The position numbers and the translations under genes were made by a program. The notes beneath the pieces are model-generated. The model saw only the letters and a list, made by a program, of their open reading frames with translations. It searched no databases and had not been told where the DNA came from. 64,000 nucleotides of DNA from a phage: the sequence record PZ445454.1; one strand, written 5' to 3'. Of this stretch, positions 63,384-63,473 are shown one piece after another (position 1 is the stretch's first letter; every line of letters starts with the position of its first letter).

Positions 63384-63473
63384 GGAAGATTAACCCTAAA
63401 AGGTAAGGGAGCAGTTTTCTAAACTGCCAGTAGCTGAGAAATCGGTGTACCAGTTCAAGTCTGGTATCTTCCT
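63384..63473 (+). tRNA. class II tRNA (long variable arm) whose anticodon loop reads TTTCTAA (UCU if canonical); identity uncertain
   Basis: Perfect acceptor GGAAGAT/ATCTTCC, anticodon arm GCAGT-TTTCTAA-ACTGC, ~21 nt variable arm, T-arm ACCAG-TTCAAGT-CTGGT, CCA encoded. Confidence 0.5.

Follow-up and report, generated by a model that had tools for sequence, protein, structure and literature searches.

The class II tRNA gene at 63384-63476 of the window, by which we mean the whole 64,000-nucleotide stretch of phage DNA that was analysed, is probably a Felixounavirus tRNA-Ser(GCU) in which the wobble base has changed from G34 to U at position 63418, an allele seen in this window only, and not an evolved recoding element. 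As to the origin of the allele, a recent non-adaptive mutation is the most likely and an error in the sequence is less likely; such a mutation would be mildly harmful or tolerated and perhaps arose during propagation.

Structure of the tRNA gene

The gene lies on the plus strand and comprises 93 nt including the encoded CCA, as delimited by ARAGORN, Rfam and the alignment of relatives. ARAGORN called it at 63384-63476 as tRNA-Arg(tct), with the anticodon taken from gene position 35. The Rfam tRNA model matches 63384-63473 (46.7 bits, gathering score 29, E = 7.7e-8), exactly where the first-pass annotation had placed a class II tRNA with a perfect acceptor stem and the anticodon UCU. Each of these elements was borne out. 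The variable region measures 21 nt (63428-63448), the acceptor stem GGAAGAU/AUCUUCC is paired at 7/7 positions both in the sequence and in the CM alignment, and the anticodon TCT (UCU) occupies 63418-63420, with wobble position 34 at base 63418, according to both ARAGORN and the alignment to relatives.

The anticodon arm (63411-63427) is formed by the 5-bp stem GCAGU/ACUGC, and its loop UUUCUAA is of the canonical 7 nt, with the bases U32 U33 U34 C35 U36 A37 A38. It had been suggested as a fallback that the loop was non-canonical and had been misread; with five perfect stem pairs, seven loop nucleotides and both U33 and A37 in place, the loop is canonical and this alternative is rejected. Automated folding likewise placed no serine, leucine or tyrosine anticodon at positions 34-36, ARAGORN giving UCU, and it is this anticodon that earns the gene the label tRNA-Arg.

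The D arm (63391-63410 in the CM alignment) consists of the connector UAA, which at 3 nt is one base longer than standard, a 4-bp stem CCCU/AGGG and the loop AAAAGGUA, followed by A26. Since G18 and G19 are followed by U in the loop AAAAGGUA, position 20 is U20 and not A20. In the variable region, delineated by the MFE fold and by covariation in the family, a 5-bp stem GCUGA/UCGGU (63433-63437 with 63442-63446) is closed by a GAAA loop, and the T arm has the stem ACCAG/CUGGU and the loop UUCAAGU. Comparison with family members identifies the discriminator as U73 (63473). The fold energy of the tRNA was better than that of 200/200 shuffled sequences (z = -3.5).

Covariation was assessed in 62 distinct class II phage tRNAs with the same anticodon arm, in which 97% of the cells were paired. 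Positions of the acceptor, variable and T stems mostly showed 3-6 pair types, with 2-6 at the outermost acceptor pairs and a single one at the invariant G53-C61, and the outer pairs of the variable arm were better backed than the inner two. This strong covariation across the family indicates that the class II cloverleaf is real and under selection. The discriminator is G in 54 of these 62 sequences and U in 8, G73 being the rule for most relatives outside Felixounavirus.

Two other class II or class II-like identities were ruled out. The anticodon is UCU and not the UCA of tRNA-Sec, the acceptor stem has 7 bp and not 8, and the matching Rfam family is tRNA. Allo-tRNAs are non-canonical class II tRNAs with acceptor/T stems of 8/4 or 9/3 bp, and the stems found here are 7/5 bp.

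A Felixounavirus locus and its tRNA-Ser(GCU)

Judged by its sequence, the window is from a Felixounavirus phage (FelixO1-like, subfamily Ounavirinae). Around the tRNA, a 1.4-kb stretch is 98.3% identical to Escherichia phage EC6 and matches 291 phage records, and the final 12 kb of the window are ~95% identical to the closest records, KEP3, E9 and H12. With ~95% identity to its nearest records, the window represents a distinct isolate that has no record of its own in the phage collection.

ARAGORN detected 25 tRNA genes on the plus strand between 58577 and 63556. Upstream of the tRNA, with its stop codon 2 nt away, is the gene of a DUF7217 protein (62584-63381, plus strand; Pfam PF23854, E = 3.5e-89), and this synteny is kept in relatives. 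A tRNA-Cys(GCA) gene (63481-63556, plus strand; called by ARAGORN and present in the records of relatives) starts 4 nt downstream and is the same neighbour in all relatives, whose gene order is DUF7217, tRNA-Ser, tRNA-Cys and terminase; in the window, the terminase starts past the end. A promoter-like sequence TTGATG-16 nt-TATAAT with an extended -10 TG (63308-63335, plus strand; 10/12 matches in a consensus scan) sits 49 nt upstream of the tRNA and may drive the Ser/Cys tRNA pair. Downstream of tRNA-Cys is a terminator-like long hairpin followed by U6 (63594-63653, plus strand; fold -25.4 kcal/mol, z = -5.9), which together with the promoter-like site brackets the pair.

Two further tRNA genes of the window matter for what follows, both on the plus strand. 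The first is a class I tRNA-Arg(UCU) with A20 (60305-60381; identified by ARAGORN, by Rfam with 62.8 bits and from its sequence), and the second is tRNA-Ser(UGA), the phage's other serine tRNA, with G73 (60620-60709; identified by ARAGORN and from its sequence). Felixounavirus phages infect E. coli Syn61-delta-3, a strain without the serine tRNAs that read TCA and TCG, and a phage-encoded tRNA-Ser(UGA) has been demonstrated as an escape route on this strain for other phages (PMC12269064). That escape concerns tRNA-Ser(UGA) and not the gene at 63384-63476.

The tRNA set differs between close relatives. The tRNA-Arg(UCU) at 60305-60381 and a tRNA-Glu are present in the window and both are missing from phage nataliec, which carries a tRNA-Arg(ACG) after tRNA-Leu(CAA) (4444-4519 of its locus) that is absent from the window (compare 61618-61638). 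H12 has a tRNA-Arg at the equivalent site, and in nataliec an HNH nuclease ORF is found close to tRNA-Pro. The three tRNA-Leu genes of the window, with the anticodons UAG, CAA and UAA (60964-61041, 61541-61618 and 62282-62360, respectively), measure only 78-79 nt with CCA and so must have a short variable loop, in contrast to the long arm expected in bacterial tRNA-Leu.

By its position and near-identical sequence, the gene at 63384-63476 is the orthologue of the Felixounavirus tRNA-Ser(GCU). In the alignment with nataliec and Shy, the tRNA differs at a single column, with T in the window and G in the relatives, and this column is the wobble base 63418. The Shy record annotates the orthologous gene as tRNA-Ser-GCT. 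The serine-type body proposed in the first-pass annotation is thus upheld by an identity of 92/93 to a gene annotated as tRNA-Ser-GCT in relatives. The likeness to the tRNA-Ser(GCU) of FelixO1, wV8, EC6, Shy, nataliec and others covers the locus and 92/93 bases, including the D arm, the variable arm, U73 and the encoded CCA; the difference is a wobble U for G, giving the anticodon UCU for GCU. Labels in the GenBank records of relatives vary: the gene is tRNA-Ser in many, tRNA-OTHER in FSL SP-010 and SP-012, tRNA-Ala in UAB_Phi87, and unannotated in FelixO1, EC6, wV8, H12 and others.

The G at the wobble position was found in every orthologue that was read. The 93-nt gene used as a query matched 290 phage records in INPHARED, 240 of them in the 95-99% identity band, with 92/93 as the best match and 93/93 in none. 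Felixounavirus-type orthologues read base by base had G at the wobble position, and hence the anticodon GCT, in 38/38 cases, and the contigs read from ENA, Logan and NCBI had G in 9/9. A 24-mer with N at the wobble base retrieved 24 Felixounavirus-type copies and three more distant tRNAs from IMG/VR, all with G. We also built a 51-nt probe such that megablast seeds solely on the word crossing the wobble base: with G, as a positive control, it retrieved 244 phage records from INPHARED, and with T it retrieved 0. The T-bearing 24-mer had no match in IMG/VR, JGI metagenomes or GTDB genomes, a T-bearing 18-mer had a single match in IMG/VR that is an ordinary 74-nt tRNA-Arg(UCU), and a search of E. 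coli complete genomes for the T allele gave no match whatsoever. In the set of 62 distinct sequences used for the covariation analysis, 44 have G at the wobble position and 17 have A; the single U is that of the window.

The wider family shows further variation. In one subfamily of the phage tRNA-Ser(GCU) genes, the D arm is atypical and combines a connector of 3 nt and a stem of 4 bp with the loop AAnnGGUA (loci L003, L015, L018, L037, L057, L105, L110 and L114; compare 63391-63410 in the window), as opposed to the 3-bp D stem usual in bacterial tRNA-Ser. Within this subfamily, the Felixounavirus members have U73 and most others have G73. The anticodon-arm pattern had 130 matches in IMG/VR phage loci, 111 of which were called as class II tRNAs. 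The anticodon is ACU in 27 of these matches, which are long-arm tRNA-Ser with A34 (for example L121, L031, L034, L045 and L086), which is not a usual wobble base in tRNAs of the bacterial type.

Mutation or error at base 63418

The chief rival to a real mutation is that the T is an error made in sequencing or assembly, or was introduced by editing the record, in which case the actual phage has GCU and nothing about it is unusual; we consider this rather unlikely. The T is unique against >280 relatives and four sequence collections, the base it affects is the one under the greatest constraint in a tRNA conserved at 100% of its other positions, it lengthens a run of T (GTTTGCT to GTTTTCT), and no independent copy of this genome was found in the collections searched, all of which speak for an error. 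In exact look-ups of encoded proteins, the DUF7217 protein, with either possible start, and rIIA had no identical entry, a 471-aa protein recurred only on a Logan contig that is 94-96% identical and stops 1.2 kb short of the tRNA, and the RNR large subunit was conserved too strongly to discriminate. The strong constraint on the wobble base, in a tRNA otherwise identical in ~240 records, counts against our main explanation as well.

Against an error stands the behaviour of the other differences that set the window apart. Compared with a panel of relatives, 21 window-only alleles were found in 57000-64000, a density of 0.31%, and substitution errors in a polished phage consensus are rarer than this. 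Four of the alleles fall in tRNA genes (4 per 1,958 nt), from which ~0.15 window-only changes are expected over the 75 anticodon bases of the 25 tRNAs, so that a single window-only anticodon change is unusual but not extraordinary. The remaining three tRNA changes are all in loops, at 60675 (position 56 of tRNA-Ser(UGA)), 61188 (position 59 of tRNA-Ala) and 61520 (position 56 of tRNA-Val), which makes the wobble change an outlier, a point against our main explanation. In coding sequences, the window-only alleles comprise 7 synonymous and 5 conservative changes. No gene in the window is split by a frameshift in comparison with phage H12, and the assembly thus appears well polished. Since the window-only changes are synonymous, conservative or in loops and frameshifts are absent, they resemble real evolution, and a real mutation is favoured over an error.

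The only split gene, nrdD, does not reflect a frameshift, since what interrupts it is an insert that resembles an intron and carries a homing endonuclease. This nrdD-like gene of an anaerobic ribonucleotide reductase (23308-26194) comprises two ORFs that both match one 714-aa protein of H12. The insert between them (24508-25321) contains an ORF for an HNH_3 endonuclease at 24620-25084 (Pfam E = 2.6e-10) and, at 24912-25197, a sub-threshold Rfam match to a group I intron (38.9 bits, gathering score 50, E = 4e-8). These matches suggest that the insert is a group I intron made mobile by its homing endonuclease.

Predicted charging, decoding and significance

Serine identity is independent of the anticodon, G1-C72 and G2-C71 are conserved in bacterial tRNA-Ser, and G73 is of moderate importance for serine identity in E. 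coli; arginine identity in E. coli rests mainly on A20, together with C35 and U/G36, and a review table lists U73 among the accepted arginine discriminators (PMC9976931). The window tRNA retains the serine-type long variable arm, G1-C72 and G2-C71, with G73 replaced by U73, and it carries C35 and U36 among the arginine-type features, A20 and the short variable loop of class I being absent. Because E. coli SerRS ignores the anticodon, and the variable arm, the tertiary shape and G1-C72/G2-C71 are unchanged, serine charging is predicted. Two features count against our main explanation here: U73 and the unusual D arm make serine charging less certain, even for the wild-type tRNA, and C35 and U36 count among the determinants of ArgRS, so that the tRNA may in part be charged with arginine.

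That ArgRS should be the main charger, acting through C35 and U36 and turning the gene into a harmless extra class II-shaped tRNA-Arg(UCU), appears improbable. Such charging would explain the viability of the phage, and it agrees with the ARAGORN label Arg, with C35 and U/G36 as bacterial arginine determinants and with U73 as an accepted discriminator. However, A20, the main determinant for E. coli ArgRS, is missing and U20 stands in its place, the body is still that of a serine tRNA, SerRS does not read the anticodon, and the phage's normal tRNA-Arg(UCU) has both A20 and the class I shape. The likeness of the window tRNA to tRNA-Arg(UCU) is confined to the anticodon UCU with C35, U36 and A37, whereas it is a class II tRNA without A20 and without any sequence relationship to arginine tRNAs.

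According to the preferred reading, a mutated tRNA-Ser(GCU), the tRNA would, given a genuine base and expression of the gene, remain mainly serine-charged. A mischarging tRNA, one of the options named in the first-pass annotation, is the predicted outcome should the T be real. Its anticodon UCU, with U36 and A37, would read AGA and, by wobble, AGG, so that serine would be put in at arginine codons in competition with the tRNA-Arg(UCU) of the phage and of the host, and the phage would be deprived of its own reader of AGC and AGU, codons that number 342 in the window. The ORFs of the window contain 195 AGA and 63 AGG codons, and AGA makes up 29% of the arginine codons. Yeast cannot be transformed with a tRNA-Ser(UCU) because of its toxicity, and attenuated forms place serine at arginine codons (PMC6827378); E. 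coli with a tRNA-Ser(UGG) tolerates ~10% serine at proline codons (PMC8855846). Since yeast does not survive free expression of a tRNA-Ser(UCU), a viable phage with AGA as 29% of its arginine codons is somewhat surprising unless expression or charging is weak.

The window tRNA resembles the engineered or natural mistranslating tRNA-Ser variants (yeast sup17(UCU), E. coli tRNA-Ser(UGG) and human tRNA-Ser-AGA-2-3 G35A) in having a serine body and a non-serine anticodon acquired by a point change, and the yeast UCU variant inserts serine at arginine codons as predicted here. Mistranslation by these variants has been demonstrated experimentally, whereas charging and decoding of the window tRNA are predicted only; it is further set apart by its presence in a virulent phage, by U73 and by its atypical D arm. 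Animal mitochondria also possess a serine tRNA with the anticodon UCU that reads AGA and AGG, or AGN, as serine (PMC4615739). That reassignment, however, is fixed and reflected in adapted coding sequences, and the mitochondrial tRNA has no long variable arm, while the coding sequences of the window still use AGR for arginine.

Classical suppressor tRNAs with a mutated anticodon include psu1+ of phage T4, derived from tRNA-Ser, and the AGA missense suppressor glyT of E. coli. In both, one anticodon base is changed and the amino-acid identity is kept; psu1+ is a phage serine tRNA and the glyT suppressor reads AGA, as the window tRNA is expected to do. Both were selected because they suppress known mutations, in contrast to the window, where no suppressed mutation was found among 228 aligned AGR codons. 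These codons are the window AGR codons that could be aligned to phage H12, the other 30/258 lying in unaligned stretches, and they correspond to arginine in 218 cases, lysine in 8, methionine in 1, asparagine in 1 and serine in 0. We therefore regard it as very improbable that the allele was selected as a missense suppressor of a deleterious Ser-to-Arg mutation (AGY to AGR) located at another site of the phage, by putting serine in at AGA and AGG. Such a mutation needs only a single-base change, tRNA-Ser anticodon point mutants retain serine charging, and ~24 kb of the genome, with the structural genes, lie beyond the window; on the other side, 0/228 aligned window AGR codons fall at an H12 serine codon.

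The other option of the first-pass annotation was a recoding tRNA. Taken as an adaptive device of the phage that reassigns or blurs AGA and AGG, it has a negligible chance of being correct: natural families of mistranslating tRNAs do exist in bacteria (PMC10404621), and a tRNA-Ser(UCU) reads AGR as serine in some animal mitochondria (PMC4615739), but the UCU allele was seen in this window only and is conserved in no relative, AGA and AGG are common (258/17,102 codons) and undepleted (228 AGR in the window against 232 in H12), they stand at arginine and never at serine positions of H12 among the aligned codons, and the phage has kept its normal tRNA-Arg(UCU). On the same grounds, a codon reassignment in which AGR means serine was rejected.

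Tools such as ARAGORN name tRNAs by the anticodon, and a gene with a serine body is therefore labelled tRNA-Arg; by such annotation, the phage seems to have two tRNA-Arg(UCU) and no AGY-reading tRNA-Ser. Since nothing in the genome is adapted to the UCU allele, the case has no bearing on the evolution of the genetic code. It is possible, although we put this forward tentatively, that the T is real and that the tRNA is expressed and serine-charged, in which case a natural virulent coliphage isolate would, in the course of infection, insert serine at a measurable fraction of AGA and AGG codons in phage and host proteins and still be viable. To our knowledge, no natural mistranslating tRNA allele has previously been reported in a phage, and that of the window would, if true, be the first. 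It would also provide a ready-made tool for measuring how much arginine-to-serine error the phage life cycle tolerates. If the base is real, the isolate is a natural experiment on the tolerance of mistranslation and on the dispensability of the phage tRNA-Ser(GCU).
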